This document shows positions 3,641 to 58,918 of a DNA stretch of 64,000 bases, in pieces. Made by a program: the position numbers and the translations under genes. Below the pieces are notes generated by a model that saw only the letters and a list, made by a program, of their open reading frames with translations, was not told where the DNA came from and ran no database searches. How positions within the stretch are numbered: position 1 is the first letter of the stretch; each line of letters opens with the position of its first letter. Source of the DNA: Octopus vulgaris (Eukaryota); the NCBI GenBank assembly GCA_951406725.2, contig OX597820.1, positions 57,846,001-57,910,000 on the forward strand, given 5' to 3'.

Positions 3641-4649
3641 ATGAAAGCGACAATGAGTCTTAAGGGGGCTTTTGAGGCTCTTGACAGATTACTTCAAGAT
3701 CTGAGGCACAACTCAATGCTAATGGGCGGCATAACAGTACTCCTGGCAGGCGACTTTTGACAAACACTCACAGTCGTTCCAAAGAGAACGAGAGCAGATG
3801 AGGTAAATGCGAGCATCAAATCTTCATACCTTTGGAGCAAGGTTAGAAAGTTGAAACTCACAACAAACATGAGAGTTCAGTTAGGTGGTGATGCGCACAT
3901 GGAGAACTTCTGTAGGCAATTAATGGATATTGGAAATGGTGCTGTAATTTTTTAGCAAGATGAGAAGATTAGTTTACCCTTTTGCAATTTGGTGTCAAAT
4001 ATACACGGACTATTGGCGAGAGTTTTCTCCAATCTGGACGCACAATTCACACACCATTGTTGGCTGAGAAAACGTGCAATTTTGGCGCCAAAAAATGTCG
4101 CAGTCGATGGCGTAAACAATCACCTTCTGGAACAACTGCCTGGCGATCGTCGCACATACAAGTCAATTGATGCTGTGCTCCACACCAATGATGCTGTTCA
4201 TTACCCCGTTGAATTCTTCAATAGCCTTGCACCTTCAGGTCTACCACTGCATGAATTGCATCTAAAGGTTGGAGCCCTAGTTATGCTTTTAGGAAACCTC
4301 GATCTCCCAAACTTATGCAATGGCATGAGTCTTATTACAAAAATTGATGTAGACAGTGTTGGAGGCATCAATACTGACTGGGAAAACAAGTGGTGAATAT
4401 GTTTCCATTCCCAAAATTCTTCTGATTCCTTCCGACACACAAATTGATTTCAAAAGGCTACAATTCCCACTGAGATTAAGCTTTGCAATGAGCATCAACA
4501 AAGCACGGAGTCAGACATTGGAAGTGACAGGCCTTATTCTTGCAGAACCTGCTTTTTCTCACGGGCAGCTCTATATCGGATGCTCTAGAGTTGGAGATCC
4601 GGAAAATTTATTTATCTATGCACCCAACGGCAAAACCAAAAATCATTGA
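3641..4649 (+). pseudogene. Helitron RepHel C-terminal PIF1-like helicase, disrupted
   Basis: Motifs AFEALDRLLQDLR, GGITVLLAGDF*Q, LTTNMR, RAILAPKN, YPVEFFNSLAPSGLP, LCNG, RLQFPLRLSFAMSINKA and FSHGQLYIGCSRV. Contains stops and frameshifts. Confidence 0.92.
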
Positions 4650-4692
4650 GTATCACGAAGTCCTGCAAGACTGAAATTTTGGAACAAAGATG

Positions 4693-5010
4693 CCTCTCCC
4701 TCCGACAATCTCTCTTGCCAACCTACGACAACCTCTCTCGCCAATCTCCGACAACCTCCAACAATCTCTCTCGCCAATCTCCGACAACCTCTAACAATCT
4801 CTCTCGCCAACCTCCGACAACCTCTCTCGCAAACTTCCGAAAACCTCTCTCGACAGTCTCCGACAGCCTTTCTCGACAACTTCCGACAACCTCTCTTGCC
4901 AACCTCCGACAGCCTCTCTCGCCAACCTCTGACGAACTCTCTCACCAACCTCCGACAATCTTTTTGCCAAGCTCCGAAAAGCTCTCCTGCCAACCTCCAA
5001 CAATCTCTCC
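4693..5010. repeat. ~11/22-bp C-rich minisatellite (CTCTCTCGCCAACCTCCGACAA) inside the Helitron
   Basis: Recurring CTCTCGCCAA and CTCCGACAA units. They explain the ORFs at 4643-5159. Confidence 0.85.
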
Positions 5011-5217
5011 CTCCTCCAGCTGACAGTTTTTTGTACTTTTTCGCAATGGAAAATACACCTTTTGTGGCAGTTATAAAGAAATTGCTTTCTTATATCAGAG
5101 TAATAAGGCGTTTCAATAAAACATCTTTCCCCCCGGGAATTACTGGGTACACCAGCTAGTTATATATATAAGGGAATTTCACACAAGATTACCGTTACGT
5201 TCTGCTTATATATACAC

Positions 5218-5754: not shown

Positions 5755-5763
5755 GGTATTTAT

Positions 5764-5997
5764 GCGGCGAGCTGGCAGAAACGTTAGCACGCCGGGCGAA
5801 ATGCTTAGCGGTATTTCGTCTGCCGTTACGTTGTGAGTTCAAATTCCGCCGAGGTTGACTTTGCGTTTCACCCTTTCGGGGTCGATAAATTAAGTACCAG
5901 TTCCGCACTGGGGTCGATGTAATCGACTTAATACCTATGTCTGTCCTTGTTTGTCCCCTCTAAATTTAGCCCCTTGTGGGTAATAAAGAAATAGGTA
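5764..5997 (+). mobile_element. SINE family A, tail type 2 (GCCCCTTGTGGGTAATAAAGAAA)
   Basis: Same head and body as 964-1406 but a different 3' tail. Near-identical to 30851-31085. Confidence 0.9.
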
Positions 5998-16179: not shown

Positions 16180-16555
16180 TCTCTCTATATATAAACGGCA
16201 GTTTGTCTGTGTGTGTTTCTGTGTGTCTGTTAGCTTGTACCCTCACCCTGACCACGGCTTTCAACCGATTCTGATGAAACTTGACACACACATAGCCCAA
16301 TGTCATAATTCAAAACTAACGCAGAGAAAATTTTGAAAAGTTCCCCCAGTTCTGAAAAAAATCGATAAATTCGACATGGGGTCGAGAATCAGAAACACAA
16401 ACCACAGACTGTCTAGGGGACGCAACTCGACCGTTTTAACTCTCAAAAAAAAATTTACCATAATTTTTTTTCCATTTTTTTTGGCTATAACTCTCTAAAA
16501 ATGCTTTATAGTTATTTCCCTTACAAACCCGAGCAACGCCGGGCGATACTGCTAG
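16180..16555 (+). mobile_element. Non-autonomous Helitron (~375 bp)
   Basis: 5' TCTCTCTATATATAAA..GTCTGTGTG, 3' hairpin CCCG-AGCAACGC-CGGG followed by CTAG|T. Inserted in (TA)n. Confidence 0.85.
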
Positions 16556-17438
16556 TATATATATATATATATACATATATATACATATATATACATATAT
16601 ATACATACATATATATAAATATATATATATATATATATGTACATATGTATACACACGCACACACACGCACACACGCATCCCCTCACACATCCCCATTAGT
16701 ATATATCTTATCAAACGAAATATTAAGTGATATCTAATCTGTCAATATAAGTGATGCTTTCAAACGGAAATGTTAAAATGTAAAACTTTAATATTGCTTG
16801 GTCACGCGTTGTTATTATTGTTGTTTTTGGTTCTTTCGTAATATTTTCTATTTTTCTAGAATGCGTATATGCAAATACATACACACACACACATATATAC
16901 ATACATGTATATATATATATATATCTTTATATATATAAAACTGAGAATGTGTGTCTGTCTGTCTGTGTGTTTCCCTAAAACTTGAGAACTACACAACCAA
17001 TTTCATTCAAATTTCACACATGCCTTACTTATGGTCCGGGGAGTGTCATCGGTAAAAAAATGTTCAACTTCTTGCCTAGAGCGAGCCCATAGCAATATCA
17101 TATCTTCTCCACTATTTCAGTATTACGTGTTAAAAGTGAAACAAAAACATTTCTCTATTTTATGTCAGATACTTTCACTTTAACAATAAAAATAATAATA
17201 ACAATTGAATTATATGTAGTAAGTAATAATTAAAATCAAACTAAAGTATAATATAATCGTAACATAAAAAAAGTAAAAATAGCAATTGGTATAAAATTGC
17301 ATCAATGACTTGAACTTGAATAAGTGGTTTCACATGAATGGTAATAAATTAAAAATAAAATTAGCGTGCAGAAATGGAATAGTCCAGATGGATAATAAAA
17401 AATTAAATTAAAGAAAAGACTATTGTCAATAAAGTATA

Positions 17439-19132
17439 CAATGTAGAGAAAACAGGGTGTTTTTTTTTTCGGCTCCTGAAATTCGGTAAAAAAGAACAAA
17501 AAGCGTTGTTGTTGTTGTGGAAATTCTGAACGGCGTTGACGCGGTTTCGCGTCTCACTGGTTCTGCGCGTTACACTTTTTCGGTTCGGGAGGCCGTTTTT
17601 CGGCCGGAGGCGACTATGAGCCGCCTCCAGCAAGCGGAGGAGATGGAAGGGAGAATTTACTCTGAAATTTCGACGGAAGTATCGACATCTGAGGAGGAGT
17701 TGGCGGTGAAAAAGATGGAAGGCACCTACGCAGGTGTAACGAAGAAGTCAACGGAAAGAGAGATAGACTTGGCTAAGTTGGCGGGCCTCCAGGAGTTTGT
17801 GAAGGAGGACGAGAACGGTGAAGTCGAGCTGCTGAATCCAGTAGGGCGCGGAGACTGGTTCCATCGTAGAACCATTAAATATAAAGTATTTATGAATGGA
17901 GGTAGAAAGATGGAAGTAATTAACATGGAAGCAATTGAAGAGGCTCTCAAGCAGACAGGAGAGGAAATTGTGTACATGACAAAAGGATTACAATACGGAA
18001 CCATAACGGTGCAATTTAAAAGTGAAAAAGCAGCCAGGAATGTAGCAGCCAAGGTGGTGAGTACAGAAAAGATTTACTTGTTACCCTCGTATCTGAATAG
18101 GCGGACAACCAGAATTAGGGTGGAGGAATACCTCCACACCTAGAGGGCGAATTAATAACGGCTGCGGTTATAAAAGGAAATGAAGATAAAGTGGACATCC
18201 TCCACGCCATTATGAAGTATGAAGGCGTGAGAGGTGCCACACTAGTTATGAACATTCAAACGGAGGCGGATGTTATAGAGAGGATTACGGACAGCATAAA
18301 AACTGGAAATATTATTATGAGAGTGTGGGTGGAGGGTAGGGCGCCCAGGTGCTACAAGTGTGGCCAGAGGGGTCACATAAGAGCCTACTGCCCTCCCCCA
18401 CCAAAGGAAAAAGAAAAGGAAAGCGTTGAGGAAGCCTCAAGAGAGGAAGAAAATAAACAGAAACAAACAGAGAAGGAAACGACAGAAGAAGAGGAGATGC
18501 AACAAGAGTGGAAAGAAGGGGGAACAAAGAGAAAAAGAAAGGAAAAAGAAAAACTGTGCGAAGCCCCAACCCACCCCAACACCACCCATACCCTTGGAGT
18601 CCCATCCTTCCCCTGCAAACAGTGATTCCACCCACTCCCCTCCAACAAGAAAACAAAAAAAAAAAAAATTAACACAGACAGACAAGAGACTGAAAGCGAA
18701 CCCAGGCCGAACATTTGTATTATGACAGAACAGGAAGAGGTTAAAAGGGTAATGGAAGGGTATACATGGTGCGATTCAGGTGTGACCAGGTGTGCAGTGA
18801 TTGAAAAGGAGCGAATAGATGAGTTTATGAGAAGGTGCGAAAGGGAGAATTGGGAGGTGGAAGAGATGAGTCTGAGTGATGAATCCGTGAAAAATATGGA
18901 GAATCGTTTTGAAGTGAGAATGGAGAATATCGGTTTTATTATTGGAAATTGGAGTGACGGCGAAAACCAAAGGACAGGTAAGTGATGCTAACGGATGGGG
19001 CCTTTAGCATCGCTTTCATATTATCATTTTTTCATGTAACAATTCATCCTTCATAAATTTAATTATAATGTTCTATGTCCCCATGTCTTGTAATGTCCCC
19101 CTCTTCGTTGGCCCCTTGTGGGTAATAAAGAA
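17439..19132 (+). mobile_element. ORF1(gag)-only non-LTR retroelement, copy 1
   Basis: 5' UTR shared with copy 2, a disrupted ORF1, and a ~150-bp 3' UTR ending GCCCCTTGTGGGTAATAAAGAA. No endonuclease or RT. Confidence 0.75.
17616..18985 (+). pseudogene. LINE ORF1-like protein (TYA motif, RRM-like region, CCHC zinc knuckle, C-terminal domain), frameshifted
   Basis: TYAGVTKK; YGTITVQFKSEKAA..RIRVE; CYKCGQRGHIRAYC; acidic/basic linker; C-terminal MTEQEEVK..ERENWEV. Split across ORFs starting at 17517, 18191, 18426 and 18722. Confidence 0.82.
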
Positions 19133-19133
19133 T

Positions 19134-20859
19134 CAATGTAGAGAAAAAAGGTCGTGTTTTTTTCGGCTCCTGAAATTCGGTAAAAAAGAACAAAAAGCGT
19201 TGTTGTTGTTGTGGAAATTCTGAACGGCGTTGACGCGGTTTCGCGTTCGCTCGTTCAGCGCGTTACACTTTTTCTGTTTTGGCGGCCGTTCTCGGTCTGT
19301 CAGACAGAAGGAAATGGACTATGAGTCTCTAACAGACTTGTCCACGACAGATGAGGAACTGGAACAGGCAATTGCAATGAAGCTGATGGAAGAAAAGGCT
19401 GGAATTTTCGAGTCTTTATCAGACCTGCCTACGTCTGAGAAAGAGCTAGAAATGGCAGCAAGGAATTTGGAAGAGAAACTGGGTTATACCTATGCCGGTG
19501 TAACCAAGAAGGCGGAAGAGAAAGGGGTAGACATGGCCAAGTTGCCAAGTTACCAGAAATACATGAAAAAGGAAAGCGGTGAGGTGGAACTATCACCGAC
19601 ACCCAGGAGAAAGAATGGTATGATAAGAGGACCATTAGTTACAGGGTGTTCGCAAACGAAAGGAAGAGGGCAGAAGTTGTAACCATGGAATGGATAGAGG
19701 AGGCCCTGCGAAGAACTGAGGAGGAAATAAATTTTCTGACTCGAGGATCCAAGTACGGTACCGTAGTTGTGCATTTCAAAACTGAGTCTGCAGCGAGGAA
19801 GATGGCGGCGAAGCCGGTGAAGTCAGAAAAGGTAACCCTATTACCTACGTATTTAAACAGGAGGATTACACGAATAAGGGTGGAGGGAGTGCCACCAAAC
19901 GTGGAGGCAGAATGGATTGTGGCGGCTGTGATCAGCGGCCACGAGGACGAAGTGGATATTCTCCATGCCTCGGTTAAGTCCGAGGGCTGGAGAGGCGTAA
20001 CAGTGGAGCTGAACGTACAGGCAGAGACCGAGGTACTGGTGGACCTGACGGAAAGCATCAGACTGGGAGACGTGATCATGAGAGTGTGGGTGGAGGGCAG
20101 GGCTCCACGTTGTTACAAGTGTGGCCTGAGGGGTCACATAAGAGCCTTCTGCCCTCCCCCAGGGAAAGAAATGGATTCCGAACCAGAGGAGAAGGAAACA
20201 GAGGAAGAGAATACACAGAAATGGAAGGAAGTTGGAAGTAAGAGGAAGAGAAGAATACGTGGAAAAAAAGAAAATAATATGGAACTCCAATCTACCCCAA
20301 AACCACCCACACCCTCTGAGTCCCACCCTATCCATGCAGACATTGAGCCCACCCGCTCCCCCCAACAAGAAAACAAAAGAAAAAAAGAATACACACACAC
20401 AAGAGATTGAAAGCGAACCCAGGCCGTACATTTGTACTATGACTGAACAGAAAGAAGTTAAAAGTCTAATGGAAGAGTATAAATGGTATGATGTTGGAGA
20501 GACTAGGTATGCTGTGATTGAAAAGAAGAACATAGGTGAGTTTATGGGGAGGTGGGAAAGGGAGAATTGGGAGGTGAAAGATATAAGAATGAGCGATGAA
20601 TTCGTGGAAAATATGGATGAGTATTTCGGAGTAAGAATGGATATGGAATTTATTCGTGTTGGCAAAGAACATTCAAGTGACTATGAAAAACAAAGGACAA
20701 GTAAGTGATGCTGACGGACGGGGCCGTTGGTATCGCTTTCATTTTATCATTTTTTTCGTTTAACAATTCATGTTCATAAAGTTTAATTATAATGTTCTAT
20801 GTCCCCATGTTTTGTTATGTCCGCCATTCTTCGTAGCCCCTTAGTGGGTAATAAAGAAA
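19134..20859 (+). mobile_element. ORF1(gag)-only non-LTR retroelement, copy 2
   Basis: Same architecture as copy 1 and directly abutting its tail. Ends GCCCCTTAGTGGGTAATAAAGAAA. Confidence 0.75.
19314..20708 (+). pseudogene. LINE ORF1-like protein, paralog of 17616-18985, frameshifted
   Basis: TYAGVTKK; YGTVVVHFKTESAA..RIRVEGVPP; CYKCGLRGHIRAFC; C-terminal MTEQKEVK..ERENWEV. Confidence 0.82.
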
Positions 20860-20863
20860 TCAC

Positions 20864-21160
20864 ATGGAGGAAAGCACCTTCGAAAAGTGTCTTGGTGGCG
20901 ACTATGAAAGATATCTAATCAGAGGCGGTAAATTCGCCACAATAGAAGCAAGGTTCGAGTCAACGGAGCGTGCAAGGGAGTACTCGACTCGAATTTGCAA
21001 AGTGGAAATATTTTATTTTTTACCTTTATATCTGGGACGTAGGACGTCCCGGAAAAAAATTTTAAATGCCCCTCCCCCCCAGAAGTAGAGGTAGGCTGGA
21101 TTGTAGCCACACTTCTATACAAGAGGGAGGACAAGATACAATTGATCGAAATTACAAGAG
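20864..21160 (+). pseudogene. Third, more divergent ORF1 fragment
   Basis: YLIRGGKFATIEARFES..FLPLYLGRRTSR, then frameshifted PPEVEVGWIVA, aligns with FLTRGSKYGTVVVHF..LLPTYLNRRITR..PPNVEAEWIVA of copy 2. Confidence 0.72.
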
Positions 21161-21356
21161 ACGGGCTAACAATTCCAGTCTGTTATATATTTTGAGTATT
21201 GTTATCACTAGCGATATCACGATATAACTTTGTATTTTGTATTTTATGTGTAGATGTATATATATAAATGTACATGTAATATGTAAACACATATATATAT
21301 ATACATATATACATGCACTAGCACTATGACCCGGCAACGACGGGTCTTTAATGCTA

Positions 21357-21397
<41 letters not shown>

Positions 21398-22139
21398 ATC
21401 CAAACTTGAAAACACCAAGAGAAAACACAACAACGCGAGGACGTGGAACAAATATAGTATTATTGGACGCTATATATATATTTATAAATTTCATTGCATG
21501 TATGTATGTATATATGAGTGAGTGTGTATATTACTTAGTTTTCGACATTATGGGCATATTCACTTATATTGAACTATTTTTATGTCACAATCAAATCAGA
21601 CTAGTCAGCACATATGCCCACAGAAACAACACACACATACAGAGAGGGAGAGAGGGGGAGAGAGGGGGAGAGAGGGGGAGAGAGAGGGAGGGAGAGAGAG
21701 AAGAAGAGAAACAGTACAGACACATACACACACAGATGAGTCCGCATGCACTCATGCTTATATGAGCATGTGTACATACACAAACTCAAATACATAATAT
21801 AGTGAGTTATTTTCACAAGTAATTAGTTGACAAAATCTCCGTCCAATACTTTTTGAAATTTTAAATCAATCAACAAATGAGGAATTCATTAGAATGGTTC
21901 TGGTCTTGACAGTTAAATTACAGTTTGTTGTTTATTAAACCTTGTCAGCAGAAATTATTCTACTCTTTCGGTATCATCAAGATTGATGAAGACATTCATA
22001 TATACATACATCCATACGTACATGAGTGTTTGTGTGTGTGTGTATGTGTGTATGTGTGTGTGTATGTGTGTATGTGTGGATCCCTCTTAACGTTGTTATC
22101 TGATAAAATAAGTATCTGTTGACCTGGTTCCTGACCGTA

Positions 22140-23674
22140 GACTGCTCTTCAAAACTATAAAGTCAGAGCACTCTGTTTTTTTTCTGACGAACTATGCTAC
22201 CCAAATTCCTGAAACTCACCTCTAGATAGGAAATAGAACAGAAGAAGGCGTTGTAATGTTCAAATTTATTGAAATCCAGACATAAATTGGAAAAATAATT
22301 CAAAAAAATACAGAGTTAGACTCTCCCTGTTTAAAACTATCGTGCAAGGTTCAATAATGTTGCAAAACAGGGAAATTATGATATGTTTCAATGATCTTCT
22401 TATGCAAAACATGAACAATAGTGTGTTTGACCACCACCTTTCTGAATTACTTCAAGGACACGCGATTTCATGCTCCCTATCAACTTCAGCAGCAGATTAA
22501 GTGGAAACTCTTTCCAGGCCTTCTTTTTTGCCGTTTCAAGTTCAGCAGATGAATACTGCTCACCTCCCCTGTACACAACATTCGTGAGACATTCCCAGGT
22601 ATTTTCTATAGGATTAAGGTCGGGATTTCTTGCTGGCCATGACATGACTTCATTCACAATTGCATAGAGGAAATCCAAAGTTGCTTTTGCTTTATGAATA
22701 GGATCATTGTCCTGATGAAATATGAAGTTCTCACTAAAGAGCCTTCTTCCTTCTTCGTTAATGTGAGCCCCGTCCAGCATATCGATATATCGAGCAGCAT
22801 TGAAACAGCCATCCATGATGACAAGCGGCAGCTTCTCATTGGCCGATATTGTTCCCCACTCCATAACACCTTCTCCGCTGTTCTGCCACTTGGAATAAGT
22901 AGAATTTTGCATACATTTATCTGTCCAGCAATACTTATAACCGTCGGTGCCATCCAAGTTCCATTTTTCCTCTTCAGAGGATATATCTCTGGTCCAGTAA
23001 CCATCCCACGTCTGATGTTACGGAGCAAACTCCAATCTAACGGATTTGTGGGAAGGAGACGATAACGGACGTCCTAGCCGCTTCTTCAGATGAAAACCAT
23101 AGTTCAAAATCACTCTTCTTACTGTGGATGTCGAGGCTCCTACTTCTGAAGCCTAGATTTTGGAGACAGAAGTGCAGCATGACTTCTTCTCCACTCTAAC
23201 AATGGCCTTTTCATTCACTGGAACGTCCACCAGCCTGAACCCTATTGTAGTCGTCAGTATCTTTCAAAAAACTATTCACTGGCGTTCTGCTTCGCCGAAT
23301 CTTCTCGGCAATCTCCCGGTTACTCATTCCTTCCACTTTCAGTCCAAGAATCCTCCCTTGCTCAATTTCAGAAAACTTTGTATCTTTAGGCATACTGGAA
23401 ATGTAATCTGGATCACGGAGAATACGATTGAGTCGAATATTTTCTGAAACAATCTGGTAAGGAATGAAAATACATTAGTGGCTTTATAGTTTTGAAGTGT
23501 TGATGTGCTAGAGAAAATTGGGAAATCAGGTGTCGTAATGTGATAATAAAGGTACAAGTTATTCACAAAGTATCCATTTACAATATATTATGGCAGTTCG
23601 TTCACTTAAACACCGAGCTAAATTTCTAAATAACTTTTAAAAAACATGTGGCTTTATAGTTTTGAATAGTAGTT
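22140..23674 (-). mobile_element. Tc1/Tc3-like DNA transposon, decayed
   Basis: TIRs ACT(G/A)CT(C/A)TTCAAAACTATAAAG with TA flanks (22138-22139 and 23675-23676). An inner repeat of the TIR core lies at ~23480. Confidence 0.85.
22400..23393 (-). pseudogene. Tc3-like DD34E transposase, disrupted
   Basis: N-terminal HTH MPKDTKFSEIEQGRILGL..MSNREIA; SSEEEKWNLDGTDGY (cf. FSDEKKFNLDGPDG); FHQDNDPIH; WPARNPDLNPIENTW. Contains stops and a frameshift. Confidence 0.9.
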
Positions 23675-24137: not shown

Positions 24138-24617
<480 letters not shown>

Positions 24618-24643
24618 CTTATCTATCTATATATCTATCTATC

Positions 24644-25132
24644 ATTCTATTTTCTTCAAGTATCACTTGAAAAAGGAAAGTGAGGGTAGAGAGGCAAGTT
24701 TTGTCTATCGAATGTTTCAAAAAAAGATGAATGAATGTAGCAAGGATGGCAAGTATGAATGACGAAGCCACCTTGAGCATAATCCTATGAACACGGAAAA
24801 ATTTAAAACAGAGGGTTACCTACTTGCAAACAAATGTGGTAACATGTAACATTATTGAGCGAGGTTACCGTGGTCTTTTCCGTAGGCTTTTCTTTCCACG
24901 GATAAACCTTATCTGCTTCCCCCTTTACACTTTACATCATGACATTTCTGTGATACACGATCCCTAGTGATCGTTTTTTTCTTTTTCTATTTTCTTTCCC
25001 TTTTACGATCCCTTTTGATCGAAAAACCTACCCCGTTTGTTTTTTTTGTTTTTGTTTTTTTCTCCCAAAAAGAAAAGCTCTACTTTGTAATCTGTCCCGT
25101 CTGTATGCACCCCTGTGTGGCTAATAAAGAAA
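24644..25132 (+). mobile_element. 5'-truncated LINE (Tx1/L1-like ORF2 C-terminus plus 3' UTR) in (TCTA)n
   Basis: Manual translation with one frameshift gives FFKYHL-KRKVRVERQVLSIECFKKR*MNVARM, resembling the F..RW C-terminus of Tx1-type ORF2. Tail CCCTGTGTGGCTAATAAAGAAA. Confidence 0.62.
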
Positions 25133-25134
25133 CA

Positions 25135-30850: not shown

Positions 30851-31085
30851 AGGCGGCGAGCTGGCAGAAACGTTAGCACGCCGGGCGAAATGCTTAGCGG
30901 TATTTCGTCTGCGTTACGTTGTGAGTTCAAATTCCGCCGAGGTCGACTTGGCCTTTCATCCTTTCGGTGTCGATAAATTAAGTACCAGTTACGCACTAGG
31001 GTCGATGTAATCGACTTAATACCTATGTCTGTCCTTGTTTGTCCCCTCTGTGTTTAGCCCCTTGTGGGTAATAAAGAAATAGGTA
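30851..31085 (+). mobile_element. SINE family A, tail type 2
   Basis: Near-identical to 5764-5997. Confidence 0.9.
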
Positions 31086-37329: not shown

Positions 37330-38352
37330 AGTAATATCTGTAGCCTGCAGTTAAAAGAAGCCAAGCCGTTATGATCGGCAAGACTAGAATTAGCATCAAG
37401 TGCTACTATAAAGTACAAAGTGATAATTTATTTCAGTTATACATTCATTGTAGAGTGGTTGTATCATGACCACCTTAACAGTGTATTTAGGAAACACCTT
37501 AAAAATTTTCTTATTTATTAAAGTATATCATCATTAGGTTTTAAGTTTAATTTCTATCCTTTTTCTAAATGTTGAATTAAATTTTCTCAATTTTATATAA
37601 TAATATGAATTACTACCTCTCGTATCCCTCAATTCTAATTTCCACCCTTAAAGCTTATATTACTTATCTCTTTTGTTTTACATTACATTCTCCTTTATTT
37701 AACAATCTAATTAGGTATTGGCCACCCCTAACTTCCCTTGTTCTAGTTACCACCTCTTCCCTACCAGTCATTCTCTTAATAGCAGCTCTGCGATATATTT
37801 TTAAGTAGATAAAGTAAGATATATGGTCCCAGTACAATGAGTGTCTGGAAGATAGTCTGACATTAATTGATTTATCACTATCACTTGATAACTCCCAATG
37901 GATTTAATTCTAAGTGGTTGAAGACTATATACTGTATAAAATTTTCTAAACATAAATAACTATGTCACCACTCATTTATATTTAACCCCCACTATTTTCC
38001 CTGTTACTCTCTAAATTATAGTAGGCTTAATAATATATGCAATATTTTCTAAATTCATTCTGCCACAGATATAACATAAGAAACAATGTGATTATTTTGC
38101 TTTCTGATATTGATATAAATTTGTTTAAAATGGTTTATCCTTTATGTTTGAAATCTATATGGTCATCTGCATCCTAAGAGAGCAGTTTCTTTCAAATTGA
38201 TGTAAAGTTTTCATTTATCAATTATATGGAGCCGCTTGAAACAGCCGTAATTATGTATTGACACTTTACATACTTGTTACTTATTTACATTATATATATA
38301 TAATGCAGCATGAAGTTTTGTCAGTGAACAGGTCGCTGCAATTGTTATACAT

Positions 38353-38407
<55 letters not shown>

Positions 38408-38410
<3 letters not shown>

Positions 38411-38830
38411 TTTTATTCTTTTACTTGTTTCAGTCATTTGACTACAGCCATGTTGGAGCACCGCCTTCAACGGTCTTAGTCGAACAAATCGACCCCAGGA
38501 CATTTCTTTTTAAGCCTAGTGCTTATTCTATCGGTCTCTTTTTCCGAACCGCTAGGCTACGGAAACGTAAGCACACCAACGCCGGTTGTCATGCGGTGAT
38601 AGGAGGACAAGCACAGACGCAAAGAGACACACACACACACACATACACACATACATGCATACACACACGCACATACATACACACACATATACGACAGGCT
38701 TCTTTCAGTTTCTGTCTACCATATCGACTCGACAAGGCTTTGGTCGGCTCGAGGTTATAGTAGTTGACACTTGCCCAAGGAACCATATGGTTGGGAAGCA
38801 AGCTTCTTAGCACACAGCCACGCCTGCGCC
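38408..38830 (-). mobile_element. SINE family B (left arm of palindrome)
   Basis: Near full-length B sequence on the minus strand. Confidence 0.87.
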
Positions 38831-39092
38831 TACACACATAAACACAATCATATATACATATATATATATATATATATACATTACAGAGATGTACTTGCAT
38901 AGCAAGTGACTTGATCTGAGATCGTGTGCTGGAACTAAAACAATTGCAGCGTAGAAGGTGTTTATAAGCAATTTAAGAAACACACAAAAACCGTTAGATT
39001 CACTTCAACATTTAAATTTAATTTGTCAAAATATTTTCGTCGCTTTGAGACCGCGACCTGTTCACTGACAAAACTTCAATGCCGCACGAAGT

Positions 39093-39143
39093 TTTGTCAG
39101 TGAACAGGTCGCGGTCTCAAAGCGACGAAAATATTTTGACAAA
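39093..39143 (+). ncRNA. Type I hammerhead-shaped motif with G3:C8 core (also 39022-39072 -, 39334-39384 -, 39405-39455 +, 37261-37311 -)
   Basis: TTTGTCA-GTGAACA-G-GTCGC-GGTCTCAAA-GCGAC-GAAA-ATAT-T-T-TGACAAA: 7-bp stem I, 5-bp stem II, palindromic stem III. Confidence 0.65.
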
Positions 39144-39175
39144 TAAAATTTAAATGTTGAAGTGAATCTAACGTG

Positions 39176-39301
<126 letters not shown>

Positions 39302-39640
39302 CACGTTAGATTCACTTCAACATTTAAATTTAATTTGTCAAAATATTTTCGTTGCTTTGAGACCGCAACCTGTTCACTGACAAAACTTCGTGCTGCATTG
39401 AAGTTTTGTCAGTGAACAGGTCGCGGTCTCAAAGCGACGAAAATATTTTGACAAATTAAATTTAAATGTTGAAGTGAATCTAACGGTTTTTGTGTGTTTC
39501 TTAAATTGCTTATAAACACCTTCTACGCTGCAATTGTTTTAGTTCCAGCACACGATCTCAGATCAAGTCACTTGCTATGCAAGTACATCTCTGTAATGTA
39601 TATATATATATATGTATATATGATTGTGTTTGTGTGTGTA

Positions 39641-40060
39641 GGCGCAGGCGTGGCTGTGTGCTAAGAAGCTTGCTTCCCAACCATATGGTTCCTTGGGCAA
39701 GTGTCAACTACTATAACCTCGAGCCGACCAAAGCCTTGTCGAGTCGATATGGTAGACAGAAACTGAAAGAAGCCTGTCGTATATGTGTGTGTATGTATGT
39801 GCGTGTGTGTATGCATGTATGTGTGTATGTGTGTGTGTGTGTGTCTCTTTGCGTCTGTGCTTGTCCTCCTATCACCGCATGACAACCGGCGTTGGTGTGC
39901 TTACGTTTCCGTAGCCTAGCGGTTCGGAAAAAGAGACCGATAGAATAATCACTAGGCTTAAAAAGAAATGTCCTGGGGTCGATTTGTTCGACTAAGACCG
40001 TTGAAGGCGGTGCTCCAACATGGCTGTAGTCAAATGACTGAAACAAGTAAAAGAATAAAA

Positions 40061-40063
<3 letters not shown>
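39641..40063 (+). mobile_element. SINE family B (right arm of palindrome)
   Basis: GGCGCAGGCGTGGCTGTGTG head through to the GAAACAAGTAAAAGA tail. Confidence 0.87.
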
Positions 40064-40111
<48 letters not shown>

Positions 40112-58575: not shown

Positions 58576-58785
58576 ACTATGTATTTAATAATACTTTCTA
58601 CTAAAGGCAGAAGGCCTGAAATTTTGAGGGAGGGGACTAATCGATTACATCGACCCCAGTGCATAATTGGTACTTATTTTATCAACCCCCAAACTATGTA
58701 TATAATAATGACATTAATATACCAACAAACTAGCACTCATTTAAACACATGGTGGTTCTTCAGTGAACAAATTGCTTTACAGTAT

Positions 58786-58918
58786 TTGCCTTTCATCCTT
58801 TCGGGGTCGATAAAATAAGTACCAGTTACGCACTGGGGTCGATGTAATCGACTTAATACCTATGTATGTCCATGTTTGTCCCCTCTATGTTTAGCCCCTT
58901 GTGGGTAATAAAGAAATA
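58786..58918 (+). mobile_element. SINE family A 3' half, tail type 2
   Basis: TTTGCCTTTCATCCTTTCGGGGTCGATAAA...GCCCCTTGTGGGTAATAAAGAAA. Confidence 0.85.

Follow-up and report, generated by a model that had tools for sequence, protein, structure and literature searches.

Two tandem retroelement copies coding only for ORF1 in a Helitron-like repeat of Octopus vulgaris: a dispersed family that probably borrows its reverse transcriptase

Introduction

Non-autonomous long interspersed nuclear elements (LINEs) in which the first open reading frame (ORF1) is present are represented by HeT-A, HAL1 and Ag-Sponge, which come from the Jockey, L1 and CR1 clades, respectively, in the available parts of the papers describing them (PMC5786205, PMC5753468). 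LINE ORF1 proteins are classified by their domains: in type I, RNA recognition motifs (RRMs) stand directly before a CCHC knuckle, and the ORF1 of mammalian L1 is of type II (PMC4120745, PMC5203782). As the accessible text of PMC4494074 describes them, elements of the Tx1 clade target DNA transposons and microsatellites, with tandem insertions 'sandwiching a TSD' (target-site duplication) and occasional truncation of the target. Here we describe two adjacent retroelement copies in a window of 64,000 nt from the Octopus vulgaris genome (contig OX597820.1, positions 57,846,001 to 57,910,000; all coordinates below are window positions). They are, in our judgement, probably members of a dispersed octopus family of retroelements without long terminal repeats (LTRs) that codes only for ORF1 and spreads by means of a borrowed endonuclease and reverse transcriptase (RT); the lender, itself probably a Tx1-type LINE, would recognise the 3' tail of the family.

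Results

The window contains two head-to-tail units of about 1.68 kb and 1.71 kb (17453-19133 and 19150-20860; Table 1), as proposed in an initial annotation that described two units of about 1.7 kb with a nearly identical leader and clearly diverged proteins. Leader identity is 91% across 170 nt and reaches 95% in the first 117 columns; the first 14 nt assigned to the leader (17439-17452) are, however, host sequence. The bodies retain 72.7% identity across 1154 nt. Between the units, identity is lowest in the ORF core, at 55-68%, and recovers to 80-91% over the 3' third. Across 17453-20860 the divergence is therefore mosaic, with synonymous sites of the core near saturation between well-conserved ends, a pattern which suggests that ORF1 cores have been exchanged between subfamilies, leaving old cores between recently shared ends. 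The segment from stop to tail can be aligned between the units at 85-91% identity and places the AATAAA inside the tail 138 and 141 nt after the stop, so that neither of the two diverged units has room for a second open reading frame (ORF2). In agreement with the initial annotation, which had quoted the tail correctly and called the units RT-less, no RT or endonuclease was found within either unit. Of the AATAAAG motifs that it had noted shortly before each unit, the one ahead of unit 1 belongs to the host and lacks the CCCCTTGTGGG tail. The start and end sequences of the units are unlike each other, the core has an RRM fold and the match to nucleocapsid proteins is confined to the knuckle, observations which bear on whether the units are LTR elements coding for gag. 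The leader folds no better than its shuffles (z -0.22) and has no Rfam match at gathering score, sub-threshold matches being nearly all in the flanking microsatellites.

Both ORF1s are frameshifted, which the initial annotation had missed, and run over three open stretches each, at 17616-18143, 18119-18625 and 18626-18985 in unit 1, with breaks near 18124 and in an A-rich linker, and at 19314-19682, 19583-20410 and 20142-20708 in unit 2. The breaks of unit 2 fall in homopolymer runs at which many contigs from other copies depart from it by a single base (in X1, 95% of depth at the first run, 94% at the second and 51% at the third), so that the ORFs are broken either by decay of the individual copy or by an error of assembly. 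From the N-terminus, the ORF1 of unit 1 comprises an acidic region, a TYA motif, RRM1, RRM2, the CCHC knuckle, a linker and a C-terminal unit. The TYA motif, the single knuckle and the C-terminal unit with its ERENWEV signature had all been noticed previously, whereas the single RRM-like region then proposed turns out to be two predicted RRMs. A structure model for the core of unit 2, derived from an alignment of 74 sequences (predicted local distance difference test, pLDDT, 94), returned 66 PDB matches at E<=0.001, those listed being tandem-RRM proteins, and superposes on the La RRM with Z 8.4 (root-mean-square deviation 2.5, 76 aligned); the knuckle matches Pfam zf-CCHC at E 4.4e-4. Judged by these models, the units encode a type I LINE ORF1 with two predicted RRMs and one CCHC knuckle. 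Transposase_22 is absent among the 25 of 27 Pfam families listed for the 74 alignment members.

The ratio of nonsynonymous to synonymous differences per site (pN/pS) between the units is 0.32 in RRM1 and 0.34 in RRM2 plus knuckle (pS 0.80 and 0.60), which argues that the core is under purifying selection and agrees with the ratio below 1 between subfamilies for which the initial annotation had proposed to test; no frame-specific constraint was detected in the linker. A HMMER profile search collected 525 ORF1 clusters at E<=0.001, 121 of them at 1e-10, and seven of the ten clusters first looked up contain named homologues from Octopus sinensis, O. vulgaris, O. bimaculoides and Argonauta hians. 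No match came from searches of a word index that used the core of unit 2 or RRM1 of unit 1, a result that receives no weight given the clusters found by HMMER. In a quick version of the ORF1 tree (68 rows), units 1 and 2 are sisters and a third ORF1 piece, directly downstream of unit 2, lies in another branch. Distant full-length relatives that carry a C-terminal domain (P0150, P0206-P0208, P0025, P0136) lie on contigs that barely exceed the ORF, for example 701 aa on contigs of 2.2-2.9 kb in four assemblies, with other members of these clusters on 5.4-6.2 kb. The short contigs hint, weakly, at an ORF1-only lineage of greater age and at an RT-less plan that predates the octopods; two metagenome scans for distant relatives with their DNA context gave no confirmed locus.

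The family is multicopy and dispersed in octopus. A search with the C-terminal unit found 15 O. vulgaris proteins at 82-96% identity and, after cluster look-up, the unit was present in 46 of the 51 O. vulgaris proteins examined. These proteins, which are predicted gene models rather than demonstrated transcripts, are spread over 18 different chromosome-size contigs; 26 of the 46 contain two or three tandem C-terminal units and 31 end at the same stop as unit 1. Models leave the C-terminal unit at the codon of a consensus splice donor that lies over its stop and join the next copy or unrelated exons; in one model, a CFAP65-like protein ends in the C-terminal unit. Given that the repeats are joined at this donor, the models string together neighbouring copies on the same strand. 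In P0165 and P0168, as in the window, the C-terminal unit is joined to an apparently different ORF1 subfamily.

Contigs from four of 24 listed sequencing runs, under three organism labels, matched the locus with a fit of at least 80%. They numbered 20,550, 1,087, 10,672 and 4,879 in the four runs and include many variants; contig depth is not copy number, and a copy count for the family is therefore not stated. The contig evidence on what follows the stop is drawn from 32 pieces listed of about 37,500 and 24 loose ends listed of 1,550. Two of the 32 listed pieces bridge the stop and the 3' untranslated region (UTR) with at least 31 letters on each side, one of them from a diverged copy, and all 24 loose ends listed fall elsewhere than at an ORF1 stop. 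X4, guessed to be RNA, had a higher summed depth over 20238-20699, which was left unused because the depth of contigs gives no ranking among the parts of a gene.

The tail of the units also ends three copies of a repeat resembling a short interspersed nuclear element (SINE), with tails at 5970, 31058 and 58895, and two of these copies are flanked by target duplications of 9-13 nt. The unit tails align locally with the SINE tail at scores of 58 and 49; among 4,905 random positions of the window, the highest score was 23. A tail pattern has seven matches in the window for 0.01 expected, a post hoc figure since the pattern was derived from the matches. A tail in common is the usual sign of a common RT donor, according to the part of PMC5804259 at hand, and the units and the SINE thus likely share one. 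A hairpin in the tail has four pairs and no compensatory change. All seven tail copies (5970-58915) stand on the + strand, possibly because of a strand bias within a gene that is transcribed. The T-rich repeats with a related tail beside (TATC)n are possibly the 3' ends of a microsatellite-targeting LINE.

The units are inserted in a Helitron-like host repeat that is multicopy in all four runs. Helitron hallmarks are a 5' TC, a 3' hairpin followed by CTRR and insertion between A and T (PMC3288121, as far as its accessible text goes); the host begins with TC at 16924 after an A and ends with a hairpin (21328-21346) and CTAG at 21354-21357 before a T. No contig matched in the last bin, 21316-21450, and the last 40 nt of the host are joined from the window sequence alone. 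Contigs of the empty site, in which 17452 is joined to 20861, occur in three of the four runs, and a matching loose end in all four. They carry the 14 nt of 17439-17452 once, and the 14-nt repeat is thus a target duplication around unit 1. This evidence from duplication and empty site concerns one host site, that of unit 1. Reuse of the target site is indicated by two further sets of junctions: X8 has tail-host junctions at the target site in two host variants, and X1 has one tail-to-leader junction with no host sequence between. The third piece matches ORF1 by tblastx (35-42% identity, E 1.6e-11), which bears out the homology proposed initially; however, it is cargo of the host repeat and not a third unit, and host variants that lack it, with 17451/17452 joined to 21165/21166, are found in three of the four runs.

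Table 1. Features of the locus and related repeats (window coordinates).
Feature	Position	Strand	Basis or remark
Host repeat, 5' part, ends in target site	16924..17452	+	begins with TC behind an A; GTCT microsatellite follows
Target-site duplication, copy 1, 14 nt of host	17439..17452	+	identical to 19134-19147
Unit 1, ORF1-only retroelement copy	17453..19133	+	bounded by 14-nt duplication
Unit 1 leader, putative internal promoter	17453..17615	+	95% match to unit 2 leader
Unit 1 ORF1, broken	17616..18985	+	frames; zf-CCHC match
Unit 1 3' UTR and SINE-shared tail	18986..19133	+	
Target-site duplication, copy 2, and two further A of host run	19134..19149	+	
Unit 2, ORF1-only copy, sister subfamily	19150..20860	+	no duplication, about 10 host letters missing
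Unit 2 ORF1, broken	19314..20708	+	breaks in homopolymer runs near 19609, 20357-20379
Tandem RRM1-RRM2 and CCHC knuckle	19613..20161	+	structure model
C-terminal unit, about 90 aa	20415..20708 (unit 2); 18698-18985 (unit 1)	+	single open frame
Consensus 5' splice site over last codons and stop	18974..18983 (unit 1); 20697-20706 (unit 2)	+	sequence; O. vulgaris models
Third piece, degraded RRM part, third ORF1 subfamily	20861..21165	+	no leader, no tail
Host repeat, 3' part	21166..21357	+	hairpin, CTAG end then T
SINE-like repeat copies, one 5'-truncated	5760-5992, 30852-31080, 58784-58917		
T-rich repeats with related tail, beside (TATC)n	24302-24618, 24955-25133		

The C-terminal unit is open in one of three frames in both units and has a pS of 0.28 and a pN/pS of 0.59 (95% interval 0.34-1.13). 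Pfam, Atlas and fold searches all left it unassigned: the structure prediction that the initial annotation had suggested for this domain gave a low-confidence model (pLDDT 49.7) with a best Z of 4.7. Its first ATG overlaps a TGA of the upstream frame in both units (20439-20442 in unit 2, 18722-18725 in unit 1), raising the possibility, compatible with an RT-borrowing family and concerning the coding plan only, that ORF1 ends at this TGA and that stop-start reinitiation produces a separate 89-aa protein at the usual place of ORF2. We regard such a bicistronic plan as conceivable but lean clearly against it. The frame that matches the closest named relative (P0002) does end at the overlapping TGA in both units, all three differences in the preceding 14 codons are synonymous in the upstream frame and non-synonymous in the C-terminal frame, and the same ATG is the start of most O. 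vulgaris models. However, three sites are few, and the model starts may merely reflect repeat masking. In addition, an extra base in the A-run at 20379, found in about 37-62% of matched depth, would fuse the C-terminal unit to ORF1, and full-length relatives have a fused domain at the same position, though its similarity is weak (hhalign 16.5, with 16.0 for the best of 60 shuffles).

Other repeats populate the window. Immediately upstream of the host, 16180-16555 is a second Helitron-like repeat, also short; 3956-5160 holds part of a Pif1 helicase (Pfam E 6e-13) with a hairpin-CTAG end behind it. On the minus strand, an open frame of 358 codons for a mariner-type transposase is found at 47692-48765 and a broken Tc1/Tc3-type transposase at 22403-23474. 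A near-perfect palindrome at 38341-40130, with arms 96-98% complementary and no spacer at 39238/39239, is either a foldback element or an assembly artefact.

Discussion

Purifying selection on the ORF1 core, dispersal and the tail shared with a SINE sustain the view of the initial annotation that the units represent a propagating ORF1-only family. We propose that RNA polymerase II starts within the conserved leader and that ORF1p, as its predicted fold and the selection on it suggest, covers the RNA that encodes it, possibly in assemblies with partner proteins; the partner RT would then bind the tail, as sharing with the SINE indicates, and copy at a nick. Insertion of unit 1 left the 14-nt duplication and unit 2 entered the same A-run with the loss of host bases, and repeated use of the Helitron-like site, for which the junctions provide partial evidence, would generate head-to-tail arrays of unlike subfamilies. 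Two further proposals of that annotation need revision. Its HAL1-like lineage keeps the borrowed RT, likely in view of the shared tail, but loses the L1/HAL1 label because the ORF1 is of type I. Insertion behind related tails is not supported as the cause of the array, since the units have a common target site in the Helitron-like repeat with a duplication between them; the single direct tail-to-leader junction in X1 nevertheless leaves room for tail-adjacent insertion.

The partner is probably of Tx1 type, a choice favoured by the type of ORF1, by the targeting and tandem precedents of Tx1 elements and by L1-Tx1 families recently active in O. vulgaris (PMC13282606, in the portion available). 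Several observations weigh against the reading of an RT-borrowing family or its details. The Tx1 assignment is indirect, and type I ORF1s are found in many clades (PMC4120745, in its available text). An autonomous partner was not seen: of 269 candidate frames in the rest of the window, 125 were scanned and none has an RT or endonuclease. Both ORFs of the window are broken, and unit 2 has no duplication. An ORF2-bearing minority of copies, expected as the partner, is possible. Gene models may join exons over long introns, so that tandem C-terminal units stand for same-strand clustering rather than strict adjacency, and no run among the 24 listed is recorded as RNA.

The main rival is that ORF1-only insertions, one or a few in number, landed in a non-autonomous Helitron and that rolling-circle transposition, rather than retrotransposition, made most copies as well as the arrays, which we consider unlikely without dismissing it. 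The units do lie between Helitron-like ends, the host already carries the third ORF1 piece as cargo, the junction of tail to 20857 also occurs under a second organism label (X8) and Helitrons are known to capture fragments (PMC3288121). Passive cargo would not, however, be expected to show purifying selection in a core whose synonymous sites are saturated; moreover, empty-site contigs exist in all four runs, X1 joins tail to leader with no host in between, unit 1 has a target duplication, and leader and tail are complete retroelement ends.

Chance internal deletion of a two-ORF LINE, with most members carrying ORF2 and the ORF1-only form not propagating, appears improbable to us: the 525 ORF1 clusters, whose DNA context was not read, could include such members and O. 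vulgaris has the recently active L1-Tx1 families (PMC13282606), but both diverged units have the same short, well-conserved stretch from stop to tail, contigs listed for other copies continue past the stop into the UTR, and none of the loose ends listed indicates an ORF2. Least credible by far is the idea of a host gene, domesticated and similar to ZCCHC3, that underwent tandem duplication at a single locus. An Atlas feature match to the RNA-binding domains of ZCCHC3 (0.90) and the purifying selection speak for it; yet the family is dispersed over 18 chromosome-size contigs, the empty-site contigs contradict it, and the units have a retroelement tail, a target duplication and two broken copies. 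Dispersal and the empty site equally contradict duplication at a single locus, which the initial annotation had named as an outcome that would overturn its proposal. The RT-borrowing ORF1-only family thus remains the reading we prefer. A much more ambitious version of it, an old octopod RT-less lineage of many subfamilies that swap ORF1 cores, with ORF2 replaced by a small stop-start-coupled protein and a splice donor that links array copies and host exons into chimeric transcripts, strikes us as rather unlikely, more so even than Helitron cargo. In practical terms, at least 46 O. vulgaris 'hypothetical proteins' carry a piece of the element, including the CFAP65-like fusion.

HeT-A also forms head-to-tail arrays, and it has a long UTR whereas that of the octopus units is short, about 140 nt. 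Its arrays are telomeric while those of the octopus are interstitial, within a Helitron-like repeat, and the ORF1 of the Jockey lineage has three knuckles where the octopus units have one. Like HeT-A of Drosophila (Jockey) and Ag-Sponge of Anopheles (CR1), the octopus units are non-autonomous with ORF1 present, and the proteins of those elements are thought to multimerise with those of the partner, in the accessible part of PMC5786205. Similarly, HAL1 is non-autonomous, encodes ORF1p only and keeps its 5' and 3' ends (PMC5753468, PMC5786205), but its ORF1 is the type II protein of L1, with a coiled coil, just one RRM and a domain at the C-terminus (CTD), and the octopus units further differ in host, in site reuse and in array formation: the octopus family works like HAL1 but is not HAL1. 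Host proteins offer another likeness, since ZCCHC3 and octopod 'CCHC-type domain-containing' proteins also have two RNA-binding domains before a CCHC knuckle; ZCCHC3, however, is a host gene restricting L1, and the octopod entries are unannotated gene models which, in the descriptions available, are not presented as mobile.

Insertion into a non-autonomous transposon is not without precedent either: Tx1L is found in Tx1D of Xenopus, and Tx1-Mar and SINEU-3 in Mariner-N4_AMi of crocodilians (PMC4494074). These are autonomous LINEs or non-coding SINEs, while the octopus units code for ORF1 only and their target is Helitron-like; their type of ORF1 is consistent with Tx1 though not unique to it (PMC5203782, in the part available), and their host site was used by both units and at two X8 junctions. 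The literature searched, in the parts available (including PMC9115989, PMC8967140, PMC4758252, PMC11203168 and one supplement of PMC13282606), holds no description of the family, which Repbase, Dfam, subscription journals or an O. vulgaris repeat library may list. The ORF1-only lifestyle is known in mammals and insects and apparently not yet in molluscs. The octopus units share traits of that class: (i), a protein of LINE ORF1 type, (ii), no endonuclease or RT ORF before the 3' end, and (iii), a multicopy, dispersed ORF1 that appears to be under selection. A selected, high-copy octopus family would, if true, bring a case from molluscs and, probably, a fourth parent clade to the ORF1-only LINEs, and it would allow us to test why one parasite of a borrowed RT keeps its ORF1 while a SINE with the same tail does without.

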